A stretch of DNA of 27,009 nucleotides from a virus: UHGV virus genome UHGV-1355560; one strand, 5' to 3'. Position 1 is the stretch's first letter, and the number at the start of each line of letters is the position of its first letter. Below the pieces are notes generated by a model, which was given only the letters and a program-made list of their open reading frames with translations, made no database searches and had not been told where the DNA came from. This document shows positions 477-10,345 of the stretch, in pieces. A program made the translations under genes and the position numbers.

Positions 477-668
477 ATGCTGATAGATAGAGACCATGTA
501 TTCTTTCATCCCCGTAAGCTTTACGAAGAAGATGGTACAGAAACAATTACGTGGATTCACAAGAGTGAGTTAGTAGACGACGCACTGCGAGACTACGAAA
601 AATTTTTGGTCGACGGTTCTAATTCTTTTAGAGGAAGAGAAGGGTGCAGAACTTCCGTGGGAAGGTGA
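477..668 (+). CDS. Hypothetical small protein (63 aa), function unknown
   Basis: ORF with protein-like charged composition, followed by a hairpin plus T-tract at 726-746. No clear Shine-Dalgarno site upstream of the ATG, so it may not be a real gene. Confidence 0.3.
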   Translation: MLIDRDHVFFHPRKLYEEDGTETITWIHKSELVDDALRDYEKFLVDGSNSFRGREGCRTSVGR

Positions 669-725
669 GACGATTGCTCTAGGTAAGATGTTTAACCTGT
701 CCGTTGGTGATTGTAAGTAATGTTT

Positions 726-746
726 GCCTCCGTTGGGAGGCTTTTT
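726..746 (+). terminator. Rho-independent terminator-like hairpin (GCCTCC-GTTG-GGAGGC followed by TTTTT)
   Basis: Perfect 6-bp GC-rich stem, 4-nt loop and a run of 5 T, immediately upstream of the SD and start of the 778 ORF. Confidence 0.55.
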
Positions 747-777
747 GTGTTGTTGATAATGTAGAAGGAGTATAAAA

Positions 778-1251
778 ATGTTTGGAGAAAACGGAGAACT
801 CACGCCTGCACAGGTAGCTGAGGTTACAGGAAGATTACCCGGAGTAACGGAAGAACTCGAAAGCCGTGGTATGAACCCAAGCAATGGGAAGTTTCAAAAG
901 GGAAATAAATTCGGACGACCCAAAGGTAGTAGAGGTAAACTGACACAATTAATGTTGGACCGTGTTGCTGCAAGTCATTTGTCTCCTGATGAAGTGTTAA
1001 TTCAAATTTACGAAGATCCTAATATTCCACCTGATCTTAGATTCAAGGCTGCATCAAAAGTTGCAGATCTGGTATATCCTAAGGCGGCCTCTGTTGAAGT
1101 TAAGATTGAGGAAGAGAATGTAATCAACGAAGAATCATTGAATGCACAAATCAAGGACTTCTTGACTGGAGCACTTGGTATCGACGTTATGCCTCCAGAA
1201 GAAGACAACTCTGAGGACGCTGAAAAGGGGGAGGAAGCGGACGAGAGTTAA
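778..1251 (+). CDS. Putative terminase small subunit (157 aa)
   Basis: Small protein immediately upstream of the large terminase, with a basic N-terminal region (KGNKFGRPKGSRGK) and an acidic C-terminus. Strong SD (AGGAG) upstream. Assignment rests on position and composition only. Confidence 0.45.
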   Translation: MFGENGELTPAQVAEVTGRLPGVTEELESRGMNPSNGKFQKGNKFGRPKGSRGKLTQLMLDRVAASHLSPDEVLIQIYEDPNIPPDLRFKAASKVADLVYPKAASVEVKIEEENVINEESLNAQIKDFLTGALGIDVMPPEEDNSEDAEKGEEADES

Positions 1252-1412
1252 TTAAAGGAAACAGGGAGCTGTCGAAGATCATCTGATTAGCAATCTGAGG
1301 ATTGTTATAGTTTTATTGCCACGATGTTCTTTTGCAGTGTACCCTTGTAGTGGAGAGGGGAGGTTCTTTGACGAAGGGACTTTCCCTTTTCTATTTTTAA
1401 ACTGGAGGAAGT

Positions 1413-2954
1413 ATGTCATTAGATAAACAAATTTATGAAGCTCTAACTGGTAACAACCTTAGTGTAGAGGAAAAGAAAGCACTATTGAATATGTTGAAAG
1501 AGCGTGACCAATGGAGGAAGTATAATAAGATTTTGTCTTTCAAGGCGTATGACTTCCAAAAGAAATTTTATGCAGCAGGATTGAAGCATCGCTTTAGATT
1601 CTTGTGTGCAGCGAACCGTGTTGGTAAATCTTACAGCGAGGCATACGAGTTTGCTTGTCATGTCACAGGTCGCTACCCAACTTGGTGGACAGGATATAAA
1701 TTTAAAAGACCTATCTTAGCATGGGCAGTTGGTATTACAGGGGATTCCACAAGGAAAGTGTTGCAAAAGGAATTGTTTGGTACACCTATCGGAAAGGATA
1801 CAAACTTATTGGGGACAGGTGTCATTCCTCGTGATGCTATCGTCATTGACACGATAGAACGAGATGGTAACAAACTTCAAATCGTACAAATCAAACATCA
1901 AAATGAAAGAGGAGAGTTTGACGGTTTAAGTACATTAGAATTCCGTTCAACCCAACAGGGTGAACACACATTGATGGGTGCAACAGTTGACTACATTTGG
2001 TTAGACGAAGAAGATCCATACGAGTCTATGGCTATATTCGCACAGTGCGTCACACGTACACTCACAACTAAAGGTCTAGTTACAATTACAGCTACACCAG
2101 AGAACGGTTTAACTGAACTGGTAGATAAATTTATGAAAGGTGAAGGGGATGAGAACACAGGTTCTCTATATTTCCAGAATGCTTCTTGGTGGGATGCTCA
2201 TGCAGACCTAGGTGGACATATCACTGACCAAGATATAAAAGATATGACTGAAGGTATTCCAGCGTGGCAATTAGAGATGCGTTCAAAAGGTATGCCATTG
2301 TTAGGAAGTGGTTTGATATATGATGTATCGGATGACACAATTAAATGTGAACCATTCGAAATTCCTGATACGTGGAAACGTGTCTGTGCAATTGATATTG
2401 GTATTGATCACCCAACTGCTGCTGTTTGGACAGCTTACGATGCAAACACGGATACTATCTATGTTTACGACTCATATAAAGAAGGTGGCTTTACTCCAGT
2501 GTATCATGCTCCAGCTATTAATGGTCGTGGTCAGTGGATTCCTGTCATCCTACCGCACGATGCGGATAATATTGAGAAAGGTAGTGGTTCATCTGTTGCT
2601 CAATTCTATAAGAATGCAGGAGTTAACGTACAGAGTGAGACCTTCTACAACAAAATTGGAATGGATGGTAAAAAGAACTTCTTTGTAGAACCAGGAATCA
2701 CAGATATCCGAGAAAGAATGATGAGTGGACGCTTTAAAATCTTTAACACAGCCGCTAACGCTAAGCTATTCGAAGAGAAAGCTAGATATCACCGTAAGGT
2801 TGGTAAGATTATTAAAGAACATGATGACTTAATGGATGCAATGCGCTATTCAGCGTGCTCTGTTACACATCGTGGTCGCTCTAAGCATGACGTTAGCTAT
2901 GGAAGTGCTTCTTTGTATGAGGCAAACGTAAGCAGATGGAATCAGAGTTACTAA
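1413..2954 (+). CDS. terL: Terminase large subunit (513 aa)
   Basis: Walker A-like motif AANRVGKSYS, Walker B-like VDYIWLDEED and a C-terminal nuclease-like region with conserved acidic residues (CAIDIGIDH...). GGAGG SD 5 nt upstream. Typical size and position ahead of portal. Confidence 0.85.
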   Translation: MSLDKQIYEALTGNNLSVEEKKALLNMLKERDQWRKYNKILSFKAYDFQKKFYAAGLKHRFRFLCAANRVGKSYSEAYEFACHVTGRYPTWWTGYKFKRPILAWAVGITGDSTRKVLQKELFGTPIGKDTNLLGTGVIPRDAIVIDTIERDGNKLQIVQIKHQNERGEFDGLSTLEFRSTQQGEHTLMGATVDYIWLDEEDPYESMAIFAQCVTRTLTTKGLVTITATPENGLTELVDKFMKGEGDENTGSLYFQNASWWDAHADLGGHITDQDIKDMTEGIPAWQLEMRSKGMPLLGSGLIYDVSDDTIKCEPFEIPDTWKRVCAIDIGIDHPTAAVWTAYDANTDTIYVYDSYKEGGFTPVYHAPAINGRGQWIPVILPHDADNIEKGSGSSVAQFYKNAGVNVQSETFYNKIGMDGKKNFFVEPGITDIRERMMSGRFKIFNTAANAKLFEEKARYHRKVGKIIKEHDDLMDAMRYSACSVTHRGRSKHDVSYGSASLYEANVSRWNQSY

Positions 2955-3137
2955 AATCCTAAGAGTTTCTAGAGAGGTTTAGGCCAGAGATTAGCCTTTC
3001 TAGCGCAGGGGGCAAGCATTCTGGCGGCTTGTTGGGGAGAGTAGGCTACGACCTCCCTTTTAGTCTTGTGGTTACTAAATTCTAGTGGTGGTAGGACAGC
3101 CCCACGTTAAAAACAGAAACGTCCAAACAGAAAAATT

Positions 3138-3165
3138 GGGAGGTTTGTCCTCCCTTCTTTTATTT
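3138..3165 (+). terminator. Hairpin GGGAGG-TTTGT-CCTCCC followed by a T-rich tract, between terL and portal
   Basis: 6-bp GC stem and T-rich tail read directly. Sits just upstream of the portal SD, so it may attenuate rather than fully terminate. Confidence 0.4.
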
Positions 3166-3191
3166 AAGCTATCAACCGAGGGAGAGAATCG

Positions 3192-5435
3192 ATGGCTAAG
3201 CAAAAATATAGTGAAGAGGTGTTGGACGAGTTACGTGTTGACCTTCAACGTCGTTTTAATTATGCTCAAGGCTACGTGGACATGGCTGTTAAGGGCTATG
3301 CTCGTGAAGCTTGGGAATATTTCTATGGTAACTTACCTGCACCAGTAACTGCTGGCAGCTCTAGTTGGGTAGATCGTACTGTTTGGGAATCTGTTAACGG
3401 TACATTGCAAGATATTATTAACGTATTCTGTTCTGGTGATGAAGCAGTTACTTTCGTAGCTGACAACCAACAGGATTCTGATGCTGCTGATGTAGCAACT
3501 AAATTGGTTAACCAAATTCTTCTGCGTGACAATCCGGGATACAATATTATCTCTTCTGCTGCACAAGAATGTCTGGTTACTCGTAACTCTTTTATCAAAT
3601 ATTATTGGGATGAGCAAACTTCTACTCAAACTGAAGAAGCTGAAGGTGTACCACCGGAAGCATTGGCTGCATATGTTCAGGGATTAGAAGCTGGTGGACT
3701 CAAGAATCTGGAAATCTTCACTGAAGAAAATGAAGATGGTACAGTAGATGTTAAAGTTACTTACGAACAAACTGTTAAACGTGTGAAAGTTGAATATGTT
3801 CCTTCAGAGCAAATCTTTGTTGACGAACATGCTACCTCTTTTGCAGATGCACAATACTTCTGTCATCGTGTACGTCGTTCTAAAGAAGATCTGGTTGCTA
3901 TGGGCTTCCCTAAAGATGAGATTGAAGCATTTAACGACTGGACAGACACGATGGATACTACTCAATCTACAGTTGCTTGGTCTCGTACTGACTGGCGTCA
4001 GGATATTGATGCTGATATTGGTACAGATACTGAAGATATCGCTTCTATGGTTTGGGTTTATGAGCACTACATTCGTACTGGTGTTCTAGATAAGAATAAA
4101 GAGTCTAAACTCTATCAGGTTATTCAAGCTGGTGAGCATATCCTTCACACTGAAGAAGTAACTCACATTCCGTTTGTAACCTTCTGCCCGTATCCGATTC
4201 CGGGTTCCTTCTATGGTCAATCGGTCTATGACATTACGAAAGATATTCAAGATTTACGTACCGCGTTAGTTCGTGGTTATATTGATAACGTCAACAATGC
4301 TAACTATGGTCGATACAAAGCTCTTGTTGGTGCATACGATCGTCGCTCTCTGCTTGATAACCGTCCCGGTGGAGTGGTTGAAATGGAACGTCAGGACGCT
4401 ATTGACCTGTTCCCATACCATAACCTACCTCAAGGTATTGACGGCCTCCTAGGTATGTCTGAGGAGCTTAAAGAGACACGTACAGGTGTAACCAAACTAG
4501 GCATGGGTATCAACCCTGATGTGTTTAAGAATGATAACGCTTATGCAACCGTAGGCTTGATGATGAATGCTGCACAGAACCGTCTCCGTATGGTATGTCG
4601 TAACATTGCTCACAATGGTATGGTTGAATTGATGCGTGGTATTTACAACCTTATCAGAGAAAATGGTGAAGTTCCTATTGAGGTACAAACCCCTCGTGGT
4701 ATGATTCAGGTTAACCCGAAACAATTACCAGCTCGTCATAATCTTCAAGTTGTTGTAGCTATCTCCCCTAACGAGAAAGCAGAACGTGCACAGAAACTGA
4801 TTAGCTTGAAACAGCTGATTGCAGCAGATGCACAGTTAGCGCCTCTCTTTGGTTTGGAGCAAGACCGTTACATGACTGCACAGATCTTTGAGTTGATGGG
4901 TATTAAGGACACACATAAATACCTTCTGCCTCTGGAACAGTATCAGCCTCCAGAACCTTCTCCGATGGAAATCCTCCAGCTCGAGATGACTAAAGCTCAG
5001 GTTGAGAACGTACAGGCTTCTTCTCAGAAGATGATTGCTGATGCATTCGACCAACGTGAACGTACTACATTCGAACAGCAGAAAGCTGCGGATGAATTAA
5101 GTCTGCGTCAGGAAGAGTTGCAGTTCAAGCAAGAAAATGCAGCAGATGCAATGACTCTGGAAAACCGTAAAGAAGATAACAATGCTACTCTGGAACAAGC
5201 CAAGCACAAGTTAGCTCTTATGCAACAGCAGGTCCGTCAGTATGAATCTGTACTGAAAGAATTGCAGATGGTTATGTCTCATCAGGTAGACCAAGAGAAG
5301 ATTGTTCAGCAAGCTCGTGTTCAGGACAAAACTTTGGAACTCCAAAAGAAAGAAGCTAATGTAACTAAGAAAGAGCAACAAGCTTCTCTCAAAGATTCAC
5401 GGATTCCAGGCAAACGTCTTGGAAGTAAAAAGTAA
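3192..5435 (+). CDS. Portal protein (747 aa) with a long C-terminal Q/E/K-rich coiled-coil-like tail
   Basis: Large protein directly after terL and before scaffold and capsid. The last ~150 residues are a low-complexity heptad-like Q/E/K-rich segment ending in a basic tail (GKRLGSKK). Confidence 0.8.
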   Translation: MAKQKYSEEVLDELRVDLQRRFNYAQGYVDMAVKGYAREAWEYFYGNLPAPVTAGSSSWVDRTVWESVNGTLQDIINVFCSGDEAVTFVADNQQDSDAADVATKLVNQILLRDNPGYNIISSAAQECLVTRNSFIKYYWDEQTSTQTEEAEGVPPEALAAYVQGLEAGGLKNLEIFTEENEDGTVDVKVTYEQTVKRVKVEYVPSEQIFVDEHATSFADAQYFCHRVRRSKEDLVAMGFPKDEIEAFNDWTDTMDTTQSTVAWSRTDWRQDIDADIGTDTEDIASMVWVYEHYIRTGVLDKNKESKLYQVIQAGEHILHTEEVTHIPFVTFCPYPIPGSFYGQSVYDITKDIQDLRTALVRGYIDNVNNANYGRYKALVGAYDRRSLLDNRPGGVVEMERQDAIDLFPYHNLPQGIDGLLGMSEELKETRTGVTKLGMGINPDVFKNDNAYATVGLMMNAAQNRLRMVCRNIAHNGMVELMRGIYNLIRENGEVPIEVQTPRGMIQVNPKQLPARHNLQVVVAISPNEKAERAQKLISLKQLIAADAQLAPLFGLEQDRYMTAQIFELMGIKDTHKYLLPLEQYQPPEPSPMEILQLEMTKAQVENVQASSQKMIADAFDQRERTTFEQQKAADELSLRQEELQFKQENAADAMTLENRKEDNNATLEQAKHKLALMQQQVRQYESVLKELQMVMSHQVDQEKIVQQARVQDKTLELQKKEANVTKKEQQASLKDSRIPGKRLGSKK

Positions 5436-5444
5436 GGACGTCGA

Positions 5445-5681
5445 ATGAACATTAGGCATCAATTCAATAAAGAGCACGCCGCCGCTTTGGCGGCTCTCAA
5501 TCTTAACGGCAGTCTTGACGCAGCATTAGAGGCATTGAAAGAAAGACTCATGACAGAGATAGTTCAAACAGAACCTCATGAGAATAAGAAACGCGAAGAT
5601 TGTTATCAAAAGTATAAAATGGTTGGTAGCTTAAAAGAGGTCATAAAAGCTGCTATCAATAGTGCAGGAGATGTTTCATAA
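5445..5681 (+). CDS. Hypothetical small protein (78 aa) between portal and scaffold
   Basis: SD-like AAGGA upstream. Its stop overlaps the scaffold start (TAATG). Helical, charged composition. Confidence 0.5.
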   Translation: MNIRHQFNKEHAAALAALNLNGSLDAALEALKERLMTEIVQTEPHENKKREDCYQKYKMVGSLKEVIKAAINSAGDVS

Positions 5682-6766
5682 TGCCACAAGATAATTATAT
5701 TGACCCGAACGATTTTAAATCTTTCCTCCAACTGGATGACCTGAAAGGTTCTTTCAAAGAAGAACTCGGTCGATTAGAATCTGAACAAGAACCAGAAGTG
5801 GACATTGACGATGAGTTCCCGGAAAAAGACGGTGACGATTTCGACTTTGATACCGACCTTCTCGGTGAAAGCGATGTGCTTAAGTTCGAAGATGAAGATG
5901 GTTGGGAAGATCATGATGAGGAAGGCGAAGTCGAAGAAGATGAGGGCGACTCTGATGAAGGTGCTGAAGACACTGAAGTAGAAGAGGAAGACTCAAGCGA
6001 TGCAGGATATGAAGATGATTCTGCTGACGGCGATGGTGAAGTCTTTGATGTAGACTACGAAACCGTTATCACCCTTCCTGATGGACGTGAGATGACTATT
6101 GAAGAACTCTCCAATGGCTATCTTACTGGTGCTGATATGACAGAACGAGAAACTACTCTTCAGCGTCATATGGAAGCATTTGAGGAACGTGTAGTAGGTT
6201 TGAAGGATGTATTAGAACTGGCGTCTTTAGAAGCAGACCGAGTAATTGAAGATTATAACGGTTTTGATTGGGACAAGCTTGCAGTAGAAGATCCTCAAGC
6301 ATATGTTGAAAACAAACGTTTCCTAGAGAAGTACACAGCTCGCCGTCAACAGCTTGAACAGGCTCAGGTCCGTATTAAGCAGGAAGCAGCAGCTAAAGAG
6401 CAGGAAGCTTTCCAAGCCAAGAGCATTGAATGTGTTAATATTCTGAAACGTGAGATTCCAAATTGGGATGAAAACTTATATCAAAACTTAATGCAATACG
6501 CAATTGACTTAGGTGCTACTGAAGAAGAAGTATTGAAGGAAAACCGTCCGTCTATTTTCCTAGCTCTCCATAAAGCATACCAATTTGATAAAGGTAAGCA
6601 ACAGGTGATGGCTAAGATTAAACGTCCCGGTGCTCCACGCAAGGTTGTGAAGTCTGATGCTGCAAAGTCTCGTACTTCCAATAAGCCAGACAACGCTAAG
6701 GTTGCCAAGGCATTCGCAGAGGGTCGCGTTAGTCACGAAGACGCATTCAAATTCCTCGTAGATTAA
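5681..6766 (+). CDS. Scaffolding protein (361 aa) with a hyper-acidic N-terminal region
   Basis: Position between portal and major capsid. Residues ~30-120 are extremely D/E-rich, and the C-terminal half is helical and charged, as expected for a scaffold. Confidence 0.7.
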   Translation: MPQDNYIDPNDFKSFLQLDDLKGSFKEELGRLESEQEPEVDIDDEFPEKDGDDFDFDTDLLGESDVLKFEDEDGWEDHDEEGEVEEDEGDSDEGAEDTEVEEEDSSDAGYEDDSADGDGEVFDVDYETVITLPDGREMTIEELSNGYLTGADMTERETTLQRHMEAFEERVVGLKDVLELASLEADRVIEDYNGFDWDKLAVEDPQAYVENKRFLEKYTARRQQLEQAQVRIKQEAAAKEQEAFQAKSIECVNILKREIPNWDENLYQNLMQYAIDLGATEEEVLKENRPSIFLALHKAYQFDKGKQQVMAKIKRPGAPRKVVKSDAAKSRTSNKPDNAKVAKAFAEGRVSHEDAFKFLVD

Positions 6767-6807
6767 TCGACAAATTAATTATTTAATAGTATAGGAGCTA
6801 ACATAAC

Positions 6808-7869
6808 ATGGCTAATCCAACTTTATTTGTATCATATGACCAGAATGGTAAAAAACTTTCTTTTGCTAACTGGATTTCTGTTCTGTCCCCTCAGGATACC
6901 CCGTTCGTATCCATGACCGGTAAAGAGTCTATCAACCAGACTATCTTTAGCTGGCAGACCGATGCACTGGCAAGCGTTGATGGTAATAACGCACACGTCG
7001 AAGGCTCTCGTGCTGAAGACGGCGAAATGAAACCGACTGTTATCAAGTCTAACGTTACTCAGATTCTGCGTAAGGTTGTTCGTGTTTCTGACACCGCTAA
7101 CACCACCGCTAACTACGGTCGTGGTCGTGAACTGATGTACCAGCTGGAGAAGAAAGGTAAAGAGATCAAGCGTGACCTCGAGAAAATCCTTCTGTCCGGT
7201 CAGGCTCGTACTGATGTTCTGGCTGACCAATATCTGACTAACTCTGCAACGGATCCTGCTGTTGTTGGTCTGAATGACACCCATGCAGCTCGTAAGACTG
7301 GTGCATTCCAGTTCCTGTGTGCTCACGGTGGTTTGTCTGGTGGTGTTGTTGACAAGACTAAGAATGGTCCTGCTGACCCGGATACTGGTGCAGTAACTGT
7401 TAAAGTTGCACAGAATGCTTCTAACCCGACCACTAACATTGGTTTCGACGAAGCTGATATCTTTGATATGACTCTGCAACTGTATACCGCTGGTTCTGAA
7501 GCAGATATCATCATGATTAACCCGGCTCATGCTAAGATCTTCGCTGGTCTGCAAGAAAATACTCAGGGTTCACGTAAGCGTATCTTTGAGAACACCAAGC
7601 AGTTCATCTACGAAGTTAATAGCATCACTGACCCGCTGGGCCAGAGCTACAAAATCATCGTTAACCGTTGGATGCCTACCGATGCAGTTTACTTCTTCCG
7701 TAGCGCTGACTGGACTCAGATGGTTCTGCGTGCTCCGAAACGTACTGAACTGGCTAAAGACGGTTCTTACGAGAAATGGATGATTGAAATGGAAGTTGGT
7801 CTGCGTCACCGCAACCCGTATGCTTCCGGCGTTCTGTTCACTGCTGCGGGAAAGGTAGCGGCGGCGTAA
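6808..7869 (+). CDS. Major capsid protein (353 aa), zero-frame product
   Basis: Position after scaffold, appropriate size, and a C-terminal region (GLRHRNPYASGVLFTAAGK) that resembles the C-terminus of T7-type capsid proteins as recalled from memory. Not confirmed by search. Confidence 0.8.
   Translation: MANPTLFVSYDQNGKKLSFANWISVLSPQDTPFVSMTGKESINQTIFSWQTDALASVDGNNAHVEGSRAEDGEMKPTVIKSNVTQILRKVVRVSDTANTTANYGRGRELMYQLEKKGKEIKRDLEKILLSGQARTDVLADQYLTNSATDPAVVGLNDTHAARKTGAFQFLCAHGGLSGGVVDKTKNGPADPDTGAVTVKVAQNASNPTTNIGFDEADIFDMTLQLYTAGSEADIIMINPAHAKIFAGLQENTQGSRKRIFENTKQFIYEVNSITDPLGQSYKIIVNRWMPTDAVYFFRSADWTQMVLRAPKRTELAKDGSYEKWMIEMEVGLRHRNPYASGVLFTAAGKVAAA
7848..7854 (+). other. Candidate -1 programmed ribosomal frameshift slippery heptamer G_GGA_AAG, 13 nt before the capsid stop codon
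   Basis: Canonical X_XXY_YYZ heptamer in the capsid zero frame. The -1 frame is open from here through 8924 and encodes Ig-like domains that begin before any ATG. Confidence 0.65.
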
Positions 7870-8924
7870 CAGTAGATTCCGTAACTGTTAGTCCTTCGTC
7901 GGTTGCAAGCCTTCCGACGGGGGCTACTCAGCAGTTTACAGCTACAGCAGAAATGAGTGACGGCTCCACAAGCACAACCGGATTTAGTTGGTCCGTTGAG
8001 GGCGGTGGGGCTGTTTCTGTTTCTGGGCTATATACTGCACCGAGTGCGTCGCAAGAAACCCCAGCAACTATTACGGCAACGAAGTCATCCAAGAAAGGAA
8101 CGGCTACTGTTAATTCTATCTACGAACCGGCGACCATTGTGTCAAAAGGTCCTATTACCGGCAAGATTGGTGGCAGCACTACAGCTTTTACCACAATGTT
8201 TACGGCAACCAACTCAGCATTCTCTGATTATGAATTTGAAATCACTCCTCCGTCAGCAGGTTCCTTTAATCTGTCGGGTGTGTTTGGTTTAGATGATAAT
8301 GCATCTGGAACAGTGACTGTAAAAGCAACACATAAAACTCAGACCTCCGTTACGGCTACTACCTCCTTTACTGGAGTTGCTGCTAAAGCTGGAATTGTGA
8401 CTAAAGGTCCGATAACTACTGCTCTTGTTGGTGGTGATTCAGTAGCTTTCAACACAATGTTTACTACCGTCAACTCTTCAGCGTCTGATTATACAGTTAC
8501 AGTAAATCCTGAAGCTAATGGGTCTTTCGTTAGTGGTTCTGTAGTCCTTTCTGCTAATGCATCAGGAAGCACTGTTGTTAAAGCTGTTCACAAAACACAA
8601 CCTAATGCAACAGAAACTTGTACATTATCCAATGTTACTCCTAAAGCAGTTTTGACAGCTAAGACAGTAACTGGTAAAATTGGTGGGGACACTGTTACGT
8701 TTGCTGATTTATTCACAGCAACTAACTCCTCTGCTTCCAATTACACTTTCGTAGCCAACCCTTCTAATATGGCAACCTCTATTGATGCAAATACAGGTCT
8801 TGTCACTTTAGCAGCTAATGCTACTGGTAATGTTACTATCAAAGCTACCCATAAAACTCAAACCTCAGTTACTGCAACAGGGACAATCAGTGGTGTAGTT
8901 CCTAAAAGCTACTATCACAGGTAA
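7854..8924 (+). CDS. Capsid C-terminal extension in the -1 frame: one Big_2-like domain followed by tandem ~85-aa Ig-like repeats (likely capsid decoration fused by frameshift)
   Basis: The -1 frame has no stop from the slippery site to 8924. The translation VDSVTVSPSSVASLPTGATQQFTA... starts upstream of the first ATG at 7953, so it cannot be an independent gene. Repeats each end in KATHKTQTSVTAT. Confidence 0.65.
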   Translation, partial: GSGGVTVDSVTVSPSSVASLPTGATQQFTATAEMSDGSTSTTGFSWSVEGGGAVSVSGLYTAPSASQETPATITATKSSKKGTATVNSIYEPATIVSKGPITGKIGGSTTAFTTMFTATNSAFSDYEFEITPPSAGSFNLSGVFGLDDNASGTVTVKATHKTQTSVTATTSFTGVAAKAGIVTKGPITTALVGGDSVAFNTMFTTVNSSASDYTVTVNPEANGSFVSGSVVLSANASGSTVVKAVHKTQPNATETCTLSNVTPKAVLTAKTVTGKIGGDTVTFADLFTATNSSASNYTFVANPSNMATSIDANTGLVTLAANATGNVTIKATHKTQTSVTATGTISGVVPKSYYHR

Positions 8925-9492
8925 ATCTCTTACCGGTAAGGTTGGTGGTGATGTGATTCCTTTTACTGACATGTTCACTAGTAACAAGCCAGCATCAGAA
9001 TTCACTTACGTACTAACTCCTACTGGTGAAGTTGGTTCAATCAACACTACTACTGGTGCACTGACTTTAGCACTGGCTCCTACAGATGAAGCTATGAGTG
9101 TGAAAGCTACTCATAAAACTCAAACTTCTGTAACCGCTACTGCTACAATTACAGCAACACCGAAGCTGACAGGTCTTGTTCTTTCTTCTGTGACTAACAC
9201 CACAGTTACTGGAAGCCCTGCGGTTCCGGCTGAATCTGATACAATCACTATCACTGATTCGGGTGTTGCAGGTGTGGCTCGTGTAGATGGAGTTCCTCAA
9301 GGAGCTGTAACTGGAGCTTTGGCCTATGATGTAGAAGGTACAGACTCTTCATTGATGACAGTGGATTTAACCAGTAATGTGTTAACTATCACTCTGTCAG
9401 CACCGATTACCAGTGAAGATACAAAAATCACCATCCGAACTAATCCGGGTTCTGATGTTTTCCGTACCTATATTGTTAAATCTGGTGCATAA
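8899..9492 (+). CDS. Continuation of the Ig-like repeat region in a different frame (fourth repeat plus C-terminal domain), separated from the preceding part by a 1-nt frame break at an AAAA run (8904-8907)
   Basis: The frame-1 translation KATITGKSLTGKVGGDVIPFTDMF... completes the repeat unit that the upstream frame cuts off at VVPKSYYHR*. The ORF-track start (GTG at 8953) lies in the middle of a repeat unit with no SD. Confidence 0.55.
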   Translation, partial: FLKATITGKSLTGKVGGDVIPFTDMFTSNKPASEFTYVLTPTGEVGSINTTTGALTLALAPTDEAMSVKATHKTQTSVTATATITATPKLTGLVLSSVTNTTVTGSPAVPAESDTITITDSGVAGVARVDGVPQGAVTGALAYDVEGTDSSLMTVDLTSNVLTITLSAPITSEDTKITIRTNPGSDVFRTYIVKSGA

Positions 9493-9498
9493 GAATAA

Positions 9499-9527
9499 AG
9501 CCGCCTTCGGGTGGCTTTTCTTGTTTT
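9499..9527 (+). terminator. Rho-independent terminator (AGCCGCC-TTCG-GGTGGCT followed by a T-rich tract)
   Basis: 7-bp stem with one G-U pair, UUCG tetraloop and TTTCTTGTTTT tail directly after the capsid-extension stop. Confidence 0.7.
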
Positions 9528-9591
9528 AAGACCTATACAAGCTAGTGTGTAATGTATATTCTTTGTCTACATATAACAAGGAGGACAACCT

Positions 9592-10345
9592 ATGGCGATG
9601 CCAGATGTGGCCTATCCGATTAACACGTATGGCTGGCTTAAGAAAGCTGTTGCCTTGTGGGCCGATCGGGACGATGATGAATTTGTTAATCAAATTCCAA
9701 ACTTTATTAATTTTGCAGAGAAAGAGATTTATCGTAACTTACGTATTCCTCCTCTGGAAAAAGAAGTGTATTTAGATATCAAAGATGGAGTGGCTTATAT
9801 TCCTCCTGATTACTTAGAAGCTCAGTGGATGATGAGAGCCAAAGATGGTACAATCTTCCAAGTAACATCTCCTGAGGAGATTAGCTATCGTAGACAGCAT
9901 GGAACAATTAACCCATCCCACTGGAACAACCAGCCTGTTAACTTTGTCTCGTTTCGGGAGTCGTTTCATTTTCTATCCTAGTATTGAAGCAGATACTCCT
10001 GTTTATCCTGATGATGGAAGCCCTTTGATTCCAGCAGAAAACTCAGTGATTCTTAGCTATTATGCGGACCCACCGGAATTCCATGAAGATACAGATACCA
10101 GTGCTATCCTTACTATTGCACCAGAGCTTCTTCTGTATTTCACTCTACGTCACGCTTGCTTATTTGTTCAAGATGATAATGGAGTTCAGAAATGGTCTGC
10201 ATTAGGAAAAGCTATCCTTGATGAAATAGTAGAGCAGCATAAGAAACAAGAGTACTCAGGTTCACCTATCGCAATTCCGAATAACATGACTCGACTTCAG
10301 AGCAGCTTGCCTGATATTTATGGTATTCGTACTTCTCGTGTATAA
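9592..10345 (+). CDS. Hypothetical virion structural protein (~250 aa) split into two overlapping frames (9592-9981 and 9899-10345), a possible head-tail adaptor
   Basis: Strong SD (AGGAGG) before 9592. The second ORF has no SD, and its frame is open from 9866, overlapping the end of the first. Protein-like sequence switches from frame 1 to frame 2 near 9946. Confidence 0.5.

Follow-up and report, generated by a model that had tools for sequence, protein, structure and literature searches.

The addition of Ig-like domains to the major capsid protein by frameshifting is already known for the phiEco32-like podophages (Kuravirus). In the GenBank record of phage Paul, the capsid CDS is joined and bears the annotation [quoted passage not shown], and the YF01 record has a capsid CDS joined in the same way. 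The SU10, Privateer, and YF01 papers also describe the frameshift and credit the virion-detected product to phiEco32. For Privateer, two capsid-protein bands were reported on SDS-PAGE and the minor capsid protein was found in virions by mass spectrometry; the same paper gives the frameshift product as observed in phiEco32 and SU10. The YF01 paper notes an absent extended-isoform band on SDS-PAGE and puts this down to a premature stop in the SU10 -1 frame; our sequence alignment shows the 1-nt insertion that causes this stop. The cryo-EM capsid of SU10 shows no extra density, which together with the premature stop indicates that the extension is dispensable. Outside this group, slippage of ~10% at gene 10A/10B of T3 and T7 and of ~3.5% at lambda G/GT is quoted in the YF01 paper; the T3 extension is Ig-like and that of T7 is not (PMC5009743). 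A first-pass annotation of the DNA analyzed here had proposed that a -1 frameshift joins the capsid protein to Ig-like domains. Our analysis supports this proposal, which describes a published and annotated mechanism of this phage group and is, as such, correct but ordinary.

The stretch that we analyzed (the window) comprises 27,009 nucleotides of the virus genome UHGV-1355560 and, as judged from its sequence, is a Kuravirus structural module. Nucleotide searches returned matches confined to Kuravirus-like phages, with Kuravirus genomes sharing 93-95% nucleotide identity across ~80% of the window, and phage Paul is 91% identical to it overall and 99% identical near the slip site. The major capsid protein gene (6808-7869, + strand) is read in the zero frame into a protein of 353 aa (38.7 kDa) that matches PF17236, SU10_MCP (E = 8.8e-77), and no other Pfam family; its residues 1-352 are 100% identical to the phiEco32 capsid protein. 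The ORF map, read with the Paul and phiEco32 annotations, gives the gene order scaffold, capsid, extension, terminator, adaptor. An intrinsic terminator (9497-9518, + strand), consisting of a 9-bp stem followed by a T-run and annotated at the matching position in the Paul record, closes the capsid transcription unit, and since the terminator comes only after 9492, the capsid gene and the entire extension stretch form one transcription unit. Taken as a whole, the locus is very probably a Kuravirus major capsid gene with the known -1 programmed ribosomal frameshift.

The slippery heptamer G_GGA_AAG occupies 7848-7854 (+ strand), where the sequence reads ...GCT GCG GGA AAG GTA GCG GCG GCG TAA. 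With the capsid ORF starting at 6808, position 7848 is a third codon position, and the heptamer is thus correctly phased for tandem -1 slippage. Between AAG and the stop (7867-7869) come four sense codons (V A A A); sequence and phase both confirm the in-phase X_XXY_YYZ site that had been claimed four codons before the end of the capsid gene, and translation likewise bears out a -1 frame open from the heptamer to 8924. This frame is in fact open from 7788 up to the stop ending at 8924. In the product of a -1 slip, the junction would span K349-G350 and read ...FTAAGK-GSGGVTVDSV..., as the first-pass annotation gave it, with tryptic cleavage expected between ...VLFTAAGK and GSGGVTVDSVTVSPSSVASLPTGATQQFTATAEMSDGSTSTTGFSWSVEGGGAVSVSGLYTAPSASQETPATITATK. 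GGGAAAG occurs 4 times in the window against 3.3 expected, i.e., not above chance, and this is the only copy on the + strand; what makes the site significant is its phase, its position, and its conservation. The heptamer is unchanged in all 16 of the distinct Kuravirus-type sequences compared, while adjoining codons vary, and its position is common to the window, Paul, YF01, phiEco32, and SU10, in two of which (Paul and YF01) it is the annotated frameshift site. The -1 ORF is open in the Kuravirus-type genomes examined, SU10 excepted, with complete extensions of 178-545 aa. No GGAG, GAGG, or AGGA occurs in the 35 nt before the heptamer, where a Shine-Dalgarno-like element of the dnaX type (~10 nt upstream) would be sought. 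In a pattern scan of metagenomes, inspection by eye gave Kuravirus downstream sequence in 10 of 52 matches, while the other 42 resemble chance 19-mer matches.

As read, the -1 frame extension (7854-8924, + strand) consists of a GSGG linker, a Big_2 domain, three Ig-like repeats, and five final residues, SYYHR, that are out of register before the stop. It matches PHROG 13745, "Ig domain containing protein" (E = 9.9e-92). The profile search that had been suggested for the -1 translation places Big_2 (PF02368, bacterial Ig-like group 2; 7872-8105, + strand) at residues 7-84, above the gathering score (E = 2.2e-9; 37.6 bits vs. a cut-off of 22.8). The first ATG (7953) comes 81 nt after the start of the domain, in agreement with the earlier estimate of about 80 nt. 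Repeats 1-3 (8130-8906, + strand) are ~86 aa each and align at 47-53% identity to repeat 1; they fall below the Pfam threshold for Big_2, and TRF run on the DNA missed these 258-nt units, which are too diverged, so the repeats were delimited at the protein level. A PDB sequence search with the extension gave zero matches and a fold search was used instead: the AlphaFold2 model of a repeat unit (pLDDT 95.7) matches Big_2-CBM56, T5 pb6, and the phi29 prohead/capsid protein in Foldseek, and as modeled the repeat units share the Ig-like/Big_2 fold. The extension as read thus has 356 aa and four Ig-like domains, and the fusion 705 aa and 73.9 kDa, close to the ~75 kDa first proposed. In the nearest relatives, an extension of 545 aa holds five Ig-like domains and a C-terminal beta domain, giving a fusion of 894 aa (~93 kDa). 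Extension length varies further in the group: SU10 reads 7 residues beyond the stop of the capsid gene, and the extension has 178 aa in phiEco32, 351 aa in SGF2 (Big_2 and three repeats), and 543-545 aa in YF01 and Paul.

The end of the extension depends on a single nucleotide. A run of four A (8904-8907, + strand) contains one A more than the A3 aligned with it in Paul, in L049, and in the 99.93%-identical metagenome contig L031, and it shifts the frame exactly at the boundary between repeats 3 and 4. The extension continues in the capsid zero frame (8908-9492, + strand) with repeat 4 and a 108-aa C-terminal beta-rich domain up to a stop at 9490-9492, a stretch that is unreachable from the -1 frame in the window as read. 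Homologs of this continuation form the C-terminal part, in frame, of the extensions of Paul, YF01, Bas89, EP335, and SR02, and the codon-position pattern of the continuation, compared with Paul, was counted as support for coding. Single-sequence AlphaFold modeling of the C-terminal domain gave a pLDDT of 60.6, too low for a fold search. The stop at 8924, which the first-pass annotation had taken as the end of the Ig-like ORF, is real as read but is not the natural end, the array running on to 9492 past the extra A.

The extra A may have arisen in sequencing or assembly, or it may mark a genuine truncation that the phage tolerates. We put the chance of an error at about even, in which case the true phage would encode a 545-aa extension and an 894-aa fusion like those of Paul and YF01. 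The window's adaptor gene, whose counterpart in SU10 forms the portal-nozzle interface, also carries a frame-breaking 1-nt insertion, suggesting indel errors or lesions. L031 has A3 and an intact 545-aa extension; the 197 codons downstream of the run are without any stop, so that a mutation, if there was one, would be very recent; and the exact truncated ORF product is on record nowhere else. These points speak for an error and equally against a real insertion, and the change is moreover a homopolymer length difference, but A3-to-A4 miscalls are uncommon on short-read platforms and the window is otherwise the cleaner of the two near-identical sequences, siding with Paul and phiEco32 at its other differences from L031. 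With a probability somewhat short of even, the extra A is instead real, and the phage would make the shortened 705-aa fusion (Big_2 and three repeats) and keep 8908-9492 as a recently orphaned, untranslated remnant. The exact coincidence of the break with a domain boundary fits such a truncation, as does the natural relative SGF2, whose extension stops at the same place, and SU10 lost its own extension through a comparable 1-nt insertion, in keeping with its dispensability.

It is very unlikely that the Ig-like ORF stands as a gene of its own, with initiation at the ATG at 7953 and a free decoration protein that binds the capsid as its product. Many GenBank records of relatives do annotate an "Ig domain containing protein" separately, and the PHROG 13745 profile begins at the Met, but both simply reflect automatic ORF calling; the SU10 structure paper, too, considers that gp10 may be a minor capsid protein. 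Against this, every candidate start lacks a Shine-Dalgarno motif within 18 nt; in place of the ATG, the phiEco32 and L005 clades have AAA and L028 has CTA; and the GTG annotated as the start in phiEco32 is GTA in the window. Furthermore, initiation at 7953 would lose the first 27 residues of Big_2, and the sequence 5' of the ATG is conserved as protein, the 29 codons upstream of it differing from phiEco32 by 13 synonymous vs. 5 non-synonymous changes. Independent initiation, which had been named as the case that would refute the frameshift, was thus rejected on the Shine-Dalgarno motif, start conservation, domain start, and codon pattern, and the claim that the Ig-like ORF cannot be translated on its own is supported. 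Two recoding events in series, in which a +1 slip of tRNA-Lys on AAA_A after the -1 slip returns ribosomes to the frame of repeat 4 and the C-terminal domain and yields a little full-length product, are scarcely credible: AAA_A permits perfect re-pairing after a +1 shift, both frames are open across 8899-8921, and the downstream ORF is intact, but A4 occurs in no relative compared and the site is thus not conserved, the adjoining sequence shows neither a slow or rare codon nor a stop codon or a Shine-Dalgarno-like stimulator, and any slippage would equal background error.

Returning to the -1 frameshift itself, folding of the window and of the alignment found no stable structure 5-9 nt downstream of the heptamer, as the first-pass annotation had stated. 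The nearest element is a weak 7-bp helix (UAACAGU/ACUGUUA; 7867-7873 with 7884-7890, + strand; -4.3 kcal/mol), separated from the heptamer by 12 nt in the window and by 9 nt in phages of the phiEco32 clade; since none of its 7 pairs varies among the 16 sequences, there is no covariation to score. The fold of the 121 nt downstream (7855-7975) is unremarkable (z-score -1.39). The stem at 7897-7919 reported earlier does exist but is only the inner part of a longer, irregular hairpin (7883-7936, + strand) that is conserved within the Big_2 coding region (RNAalifold consensus, -24.6 kcal/mol) and with which the 7-bp helix competes. Three pairs of this hairpin show compensatory changes, one of them occurring as GC, UA, and AU, and these changes appear to be kept even where they replace amino acids in Big_2. 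The hairpin begins 28 nt after the heptamer, too far downstream for a classical stimulator. A hairpin with the heptamer in its loop, which the SU10 paper proposed and RNAalifold also finds (-10.7 kcal/mol), was rejected as a stimulator as well, its 5' arm being inside the ribosome at the moment of slip.

The missing structure at 5-9 nt does not argue against frameshifting, since the lambda G/GT shift uses the same heptamer; and because a review lists G_GGA_AAG among the highly shift-prone heptamers in E. coli (PMC5009743), a stimulator is not strictly needed. That the 7883-7936 hairpin is a functional RNA element tuning the number of extended subunits, or that a +1 slip on AAA_A partly rescues full length if A4 is real, seems improbable to us. 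The hairpin might act at a distance on ribosomes queuing at the slip site, or it might affect mRNA stability, and either the hairpin role or the +1 rescue, if true, would be a new detail atop the known frameshift.

We propose that most ribosomes would pass G_GGA_AAG and terminate four codons on, yielding the 353-aa HK97-fold capsid protein, and that perhaps a few per cent would slip one base back with tRNA-Gly on GGA and tRNA-Lys on AAG, which would re-pair on GGG and AAA, respectively. The slipped ribosomes would produce a capsid protein carrying, at its C terminus, the GSGG linker, Big_2, and the further Ig-like domains. Such extended subunits may co-assemble into the prolate head and present flexible Ig-like arms on its surface, which would probably give weak adhesion to carbohydrates of cells or mucus. 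We infer the presence of the frameshift product in the phage of the window from its homology to relatives.

The value of the finding lies mainly in correct annotation, given that many GenBank records of therapeutic-candidate E. coli phages list the Ig-like ORF separately; proteomics, capsid engineering and display, and questions of phage adherence to mucus all call for the fusion to be recognized. In addition, the range of extensions (7 residues in SU10 and 178-545 aa in the others) forms a natural series for testing the role of capsid-borne Ig-like domains. The extra A serves mainly as a warning that the window sequence may carry indel errors.

Compared with known systems, the locus is closest to phiEco32 gp11-gp12, Paul CPT_Paul_009/010, YF01 gp8, and SU10 CDS9/10, with which it shares the SU10_MCP family, the heptamer and its position, the Big_2 start, and the gene order; only the extension length differs from its Kuravirus relatives (178 aa in phiEco32 and 543-545 aa in YF01 and Paul vs. 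356 aa in the window, with its extra A). GGGAAAG likewise ends the homologous capsid gene of Proteus phage Privateer (Privateervirus), and the related phage P59 has G_GGA_AAG_UAA and a 169-aa -1 ORF. The Privateer type differs in that its heptamer abuts the stop codon and its appended sequence is unlike the Kuravirus Big_2 start; by eye, this sequence resembles an I-set-type Ig domain. Lambda G/GT has the identical heptamer, but in a tail assembly chaperone gene rather than a capsid gene, and its product is an assembly factor absent from virions. The lambda shift is said, in 1993 work by Levin et al., to require no downstream structure.

Gene 10A/10B of T3 and T7 resembles the window in that ribosomes shift to the -1 frame shortly before the end of the capsid gene and so produce a longer minor subunit that enters the head; it differs in a capsid family without detected sequence relationship, in a T7 extension that is not Ig-like, and in a much shorter extension. 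The T7/T3 slippery sequence also differs from G_GGA_AAG. A homologous relationship with T7-like phages, for capsid gene and slip site alike, was considered and rejected, only SU10_MCP in Pfam and Kuravirus-like nucleotide matches being found, so that the likeness is one of analogy and not of membership. The comparison with T7 made at the outset is fair for the mechanism, T3 being the closer parallel for its Ig-like extension. The likeness also drawn to Ig-like domains added to phage structural proteins by recoding is upheld: in the class described by Fraser et al. 2006, a structural protein receives C-terminal Ig-like (Big_2) domains via a frameshift, with copy number and domain type varying among relatives, and the feature in the window is a textbook member of that class, with no substantive difference.

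The window (27 kb) corresponds to the structural module of a podophage of the phiEco32 type (genus Kuravirus, subfamily Gordonclarkvirinae). Megablast with 25 kb as query returned 130 phage records, most of them from Escherichia phages; the leading matches (pEC-N1203-2Af.1, YF01, PGN6866, and phiEco32) reach ~80% query cover at 93-95% identity, and the gene order (terminase, portal, scaffold, capsid, extension, adaptor, fibres) matches those of Paul and phiEco32; Paul is the closest full-length match to window 6800-9600, at 91.2% identity. The major capsid protein ORF (6808-7869) belongs to Pfam PF17236 (SU10_MCP; E = 8.8e-77), and its product is 100% identical to that of phiEco32 over residues 1-352. 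We confirm the first-pass observation at the end of this gene, and its interpretation, a -1 frameshift that adds Ig-like domains to the capsid protein, is supported.

The capsid gene ends ...TTC ACT GCT GCG GGA AAG GTA GCG GCG GCG TAA, so that the slippery heptamer GGGAAAG lies at 7848-7854 as proposed, with 7848 in the third codon position (phase G_GGA_AAG) and four sense codons before the stop at 7867-7869. Translation across the slip reproduces the predicted junction, ...FTAAGK-GSGGVTVDSV..., and the fusion as read in the window has 705 aa and 73.9 kDa, in line with the ~75 kDa expected. The heptamer at 7848 is the sole plus-strand GGGAAAG in the window, and the motif as a whole is no more frequent there than chance allows (4 found against 3.3 expected); it is the phase, the position within a 79-nt overlap of open frames, and the conservation that make it meaningful, not the count alone. 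Among the Kuravirus-type sequences compared, drawn from eleven phage records, ten true Kuravirus metagenome contigs, and IMG/VR loci, no base of the heptamer varies, unlike the flanking codons on both sides, and the -1 frame stays open for 178-545 codons in every relative with a complete extension except SU10, in which a 1-nt insertion brings a TAG shortly 3' of the slip site, as the YF01 paper likewise reports.

The -1 frame is indeed open from 7788 to a stop ending at 8924, but 8924 is not its natural end. Aligned with Paul, the window carries a single extra A at 8904-8907 (CCTAAAAGC in the window against CCTAAAGC in Paul), 3' of which the repeat array runs on stop-free in the capsid zero frame to 9490-9492, encoding repeat 4 and a C-terminal domain of 108 aa, both homologous to in-frame parts of the Paul, YF01, Bas89, EP335, and SR02 extensions. 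With three A residues the fusion would have 894 aa and 92.8 kDa. A sequencing or assembly error and a recent mutation are about equally good explanations of the extra base. The metagenome-derived contig CYGL01000233.1 (assembly GCA_001292545.1) matches the window at 99.93% identity across 9.66 kb, and the two probably represent a single phage that was assembled twice or in sister samples. That contig has three A residues and an intact 545-aa extension, and a search for a product identical to that of the truncated ORF found it on record nowhere else. The other differences between the two sequences over window 664-10318 are small indel or substitution clusters at 779, 948, and 1555-1570; at these sites Paul and phiEco32 side with the window and not with the contig, so the window is not generally the noisier of the two. 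The break falls exactly on the boundary between repeats 3 and 4 and leaves the architecture of SGF2, and a real truncation would probably be tolerated, given the precedent of the extension lost in SU10.

A second extra base lies further downstream: a 1-nt T insertion at 9947 (TTTGTCTCG in the window against TTTGCTCG in relatives), common to the window and CYGL01000233.1, splits the adaptor gene (9592-10345) into ORFs 9592-9981 and 9899-10345. The insertion is absent from Paul, phiEco32, and the L079 locus, where the adaptor is an unsplit 250 aa. In SU10 the adaptor forms the portal-nozzle interface, as described in the structure paper, so the split indicates either indel errors or a defective genome at the source.

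That the Ig-like ORF might instead be a separate gene, translated from its own start such as the ATG at 7953, is rejected on four results that favour the fusion. No Shine-Dalgarno motif precedes any candidate start codon in the -1 frame. The ATG is confined to the Paul/NJ01-type clade, being AAA in phiEco32 and the L005 locus and CTA in L028, and the GTG start used by the phiEco32 annotators is GTA in the window. The Big_2 domain begins 81 nt before the ATG, close to the ~80 nt first estimated (nt 7872-8105; Pfam match over residues 7-84, E = 2.2e-9, above the gathering score), and protein alignments of it begin at extension residue 1-3 in every relative. Finally, the 29 codons from the slip site to the ATG differ from phiEco32 by 4, 4, and 15 changes at codon positions 1, 2, and 3, with 13 synonymous against 5 non-synonymous codons, which shows that they are translated. 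The only terminator found is 3' of 9492; relatives whose capsid genes have no frameshift (Salmonella 7-11, Cronobacter A24, and Vibrio SJSY21) carry a hairpin and T-run directly after the capsid stop. Directly 3' of the capsid gene, Salmonella 7-11 (L019, 2225-3982) and Cronobacter A24 (L020, 2231-3316) have a separately initiated second gene likewise annotated "major head protein", which may supply a second capsid-associated protein by a different route; in 7-11 the hairpin and T-run between the two genes is annotated as a terminator.

The extension is modular among relatives. Big_2 is accompanied by one repeat in phiEco32, NJ01, and KBNP1711, by three in SGF2, and by four in L032 and L028; in relatives that also have the C-terminal domain, there are two repeats in EP335, three in Bas89 and SR02, and four in Paul, YF01, and L031 (CYGL01000233.1, also L078). 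Among the four repeat units, identity to the first is 47-53%. The repeat unit is modelled with high confidence as a beta-sandwich (pLDDT 95.7), its best solved matches in a fold search being Big_2-CBM56, the T5 tail tube protein pb6, phi29 prohead/capsid protein chains, a mycobacteriophage capsid protein, invasin, and intimin; the C-terminal domain model is beta-rich but of low confidence (pLDDT 60.6). The PHROGs annotation is "Ig domain containing protein", with a further, weak match that is Hoc-like. Within repeat 3, a near-consensus sigma-70 promoter-like site at 8652-8680 (TTGACA, 17 nt, TAAAAT, with TG; 11/12 matches) is probably fortuitous, since the region holds no more such sites than expected from shuffling.

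Downstream of the slip site, the stem noted at 7897-7919 is real but is only the inner part of an irregular hairpin at 7883-7936 (-24.6 kcal/mol), recovered by RNAalifold from 12-16 distinct sequences. Three of its pairs show compensatory changes, one of them occurring as G-C, U-A, and A-U, with more cells changed on both sides than in any of 500 shuffles. The 5' arm of YF01 carries a synonymous change, TCG to TCA, and the 3' arm a matching one that replaces Pro by Leu, which suggests that the RNA itself is under selection. Starting 28 nt after the heptamer, well past the mRNA entry channel of a ribosome positioned on the slip site, the hairpin does not qualify as a classical stimulator. A weak helix pairing 7867-7873 with 7884-7890 (-4.3 kcal/mol) starts 12 nt 3' of the heptamer in the window and 9 nt in the phiEco32 clade; it is invariant in the alignment, so covariation is no test of it. 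Folding of the 121 nt downstream gives no unusual stability (z = -1.39). By the lambda precedent, shifting at a few per cent would need no stimulator.

More distant relatives carry variant slip sites. Three IMG/VR contigs (L008:4412-4924, L009:4412-4930, and L010:4412-4927), with capsid proteins 65-66% identical, have G_GUA_AAG, an imperfect X_XXY_YYZ one base from the Kuravirus heptamer. A GC-rich hairpin of -11 to -13 kcal/mol begins within 1-6 nt 3' of this site, and the -1 ORF of ~170 aa opens with Big_2-like sequence; a proximal stimulator seems here to make up for a weaker slip site, opposite to what is seen in Kuravirus. The same G_GUA_AAG ends the capsid genes of Aeromonas phage LAh_6 (L021:2132-2407) and L011 (4412-4687), with a 90-aa -1 ORF encoding a putative Ig-like domain, its likeness judged by eye; annotated in LAh_6 as a separate "tail protein", this may be an unannotated capsid frameshift. 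A further IMG/VR contig (L013:4421-4552; capsid protein 55% identical) has A_AAA_AAG just before the capsid stop and a proline-rich -1 extension of merely 42 aa.

We propose that peptidyl-tRNA-Gly and aminoacyl-tRNA-Lys would slip in tandem by -1 on G_GGA_AAG at low frequency, yielding a minor capsid subunit whose C-terminus would extend beyond the shell as a flexible string of Ig-like domains. With the 715 capsid subunits per SU10 head reported in the structure paper, a lambda-like rate would give a few tens of arms per head, and from the general literature on phage Ig-like domains we infer their surface display and an adhesive role.

The capsid frameshift is already described and annotated in close relatives, leaving the distal hairpin with its covarying pairs, the extra A in the extension, and the slip-site variants of more distant relatives as points of mild interest. 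In the GenBank record of Paul the capsid CDS is a join, annotated [quoted passage not shown], and the YF01 record has the same join; the YF01 paper describes slippage at GGGAAAG, with isoforms of 892 aa (YF01) and 894 aa (Paul), and loss of the extension in SU10, and the SU10 genome paper a frameshift site "as in phage phiEco32". For the Proteus phage Privateer, two capsid-protein bands on SDS-PAGE and a minor capsid protein found in virions by mass spectrometry are reported, and a passage of the same paper, citing others, names phiEco32 and SU10 as phages in which the frameshift product had been observed. A review of recoding (PMC5009743) places G_GGA_AAG among the highly shift-prone heptamers in E. 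coli and describes a recognised class of phage coat proteins that gain Ig-like domains by frameshifting. The heptamer of the window is identical to that of lambda G/GT, for which the YF01 paper quotes ~3.5% slippage.
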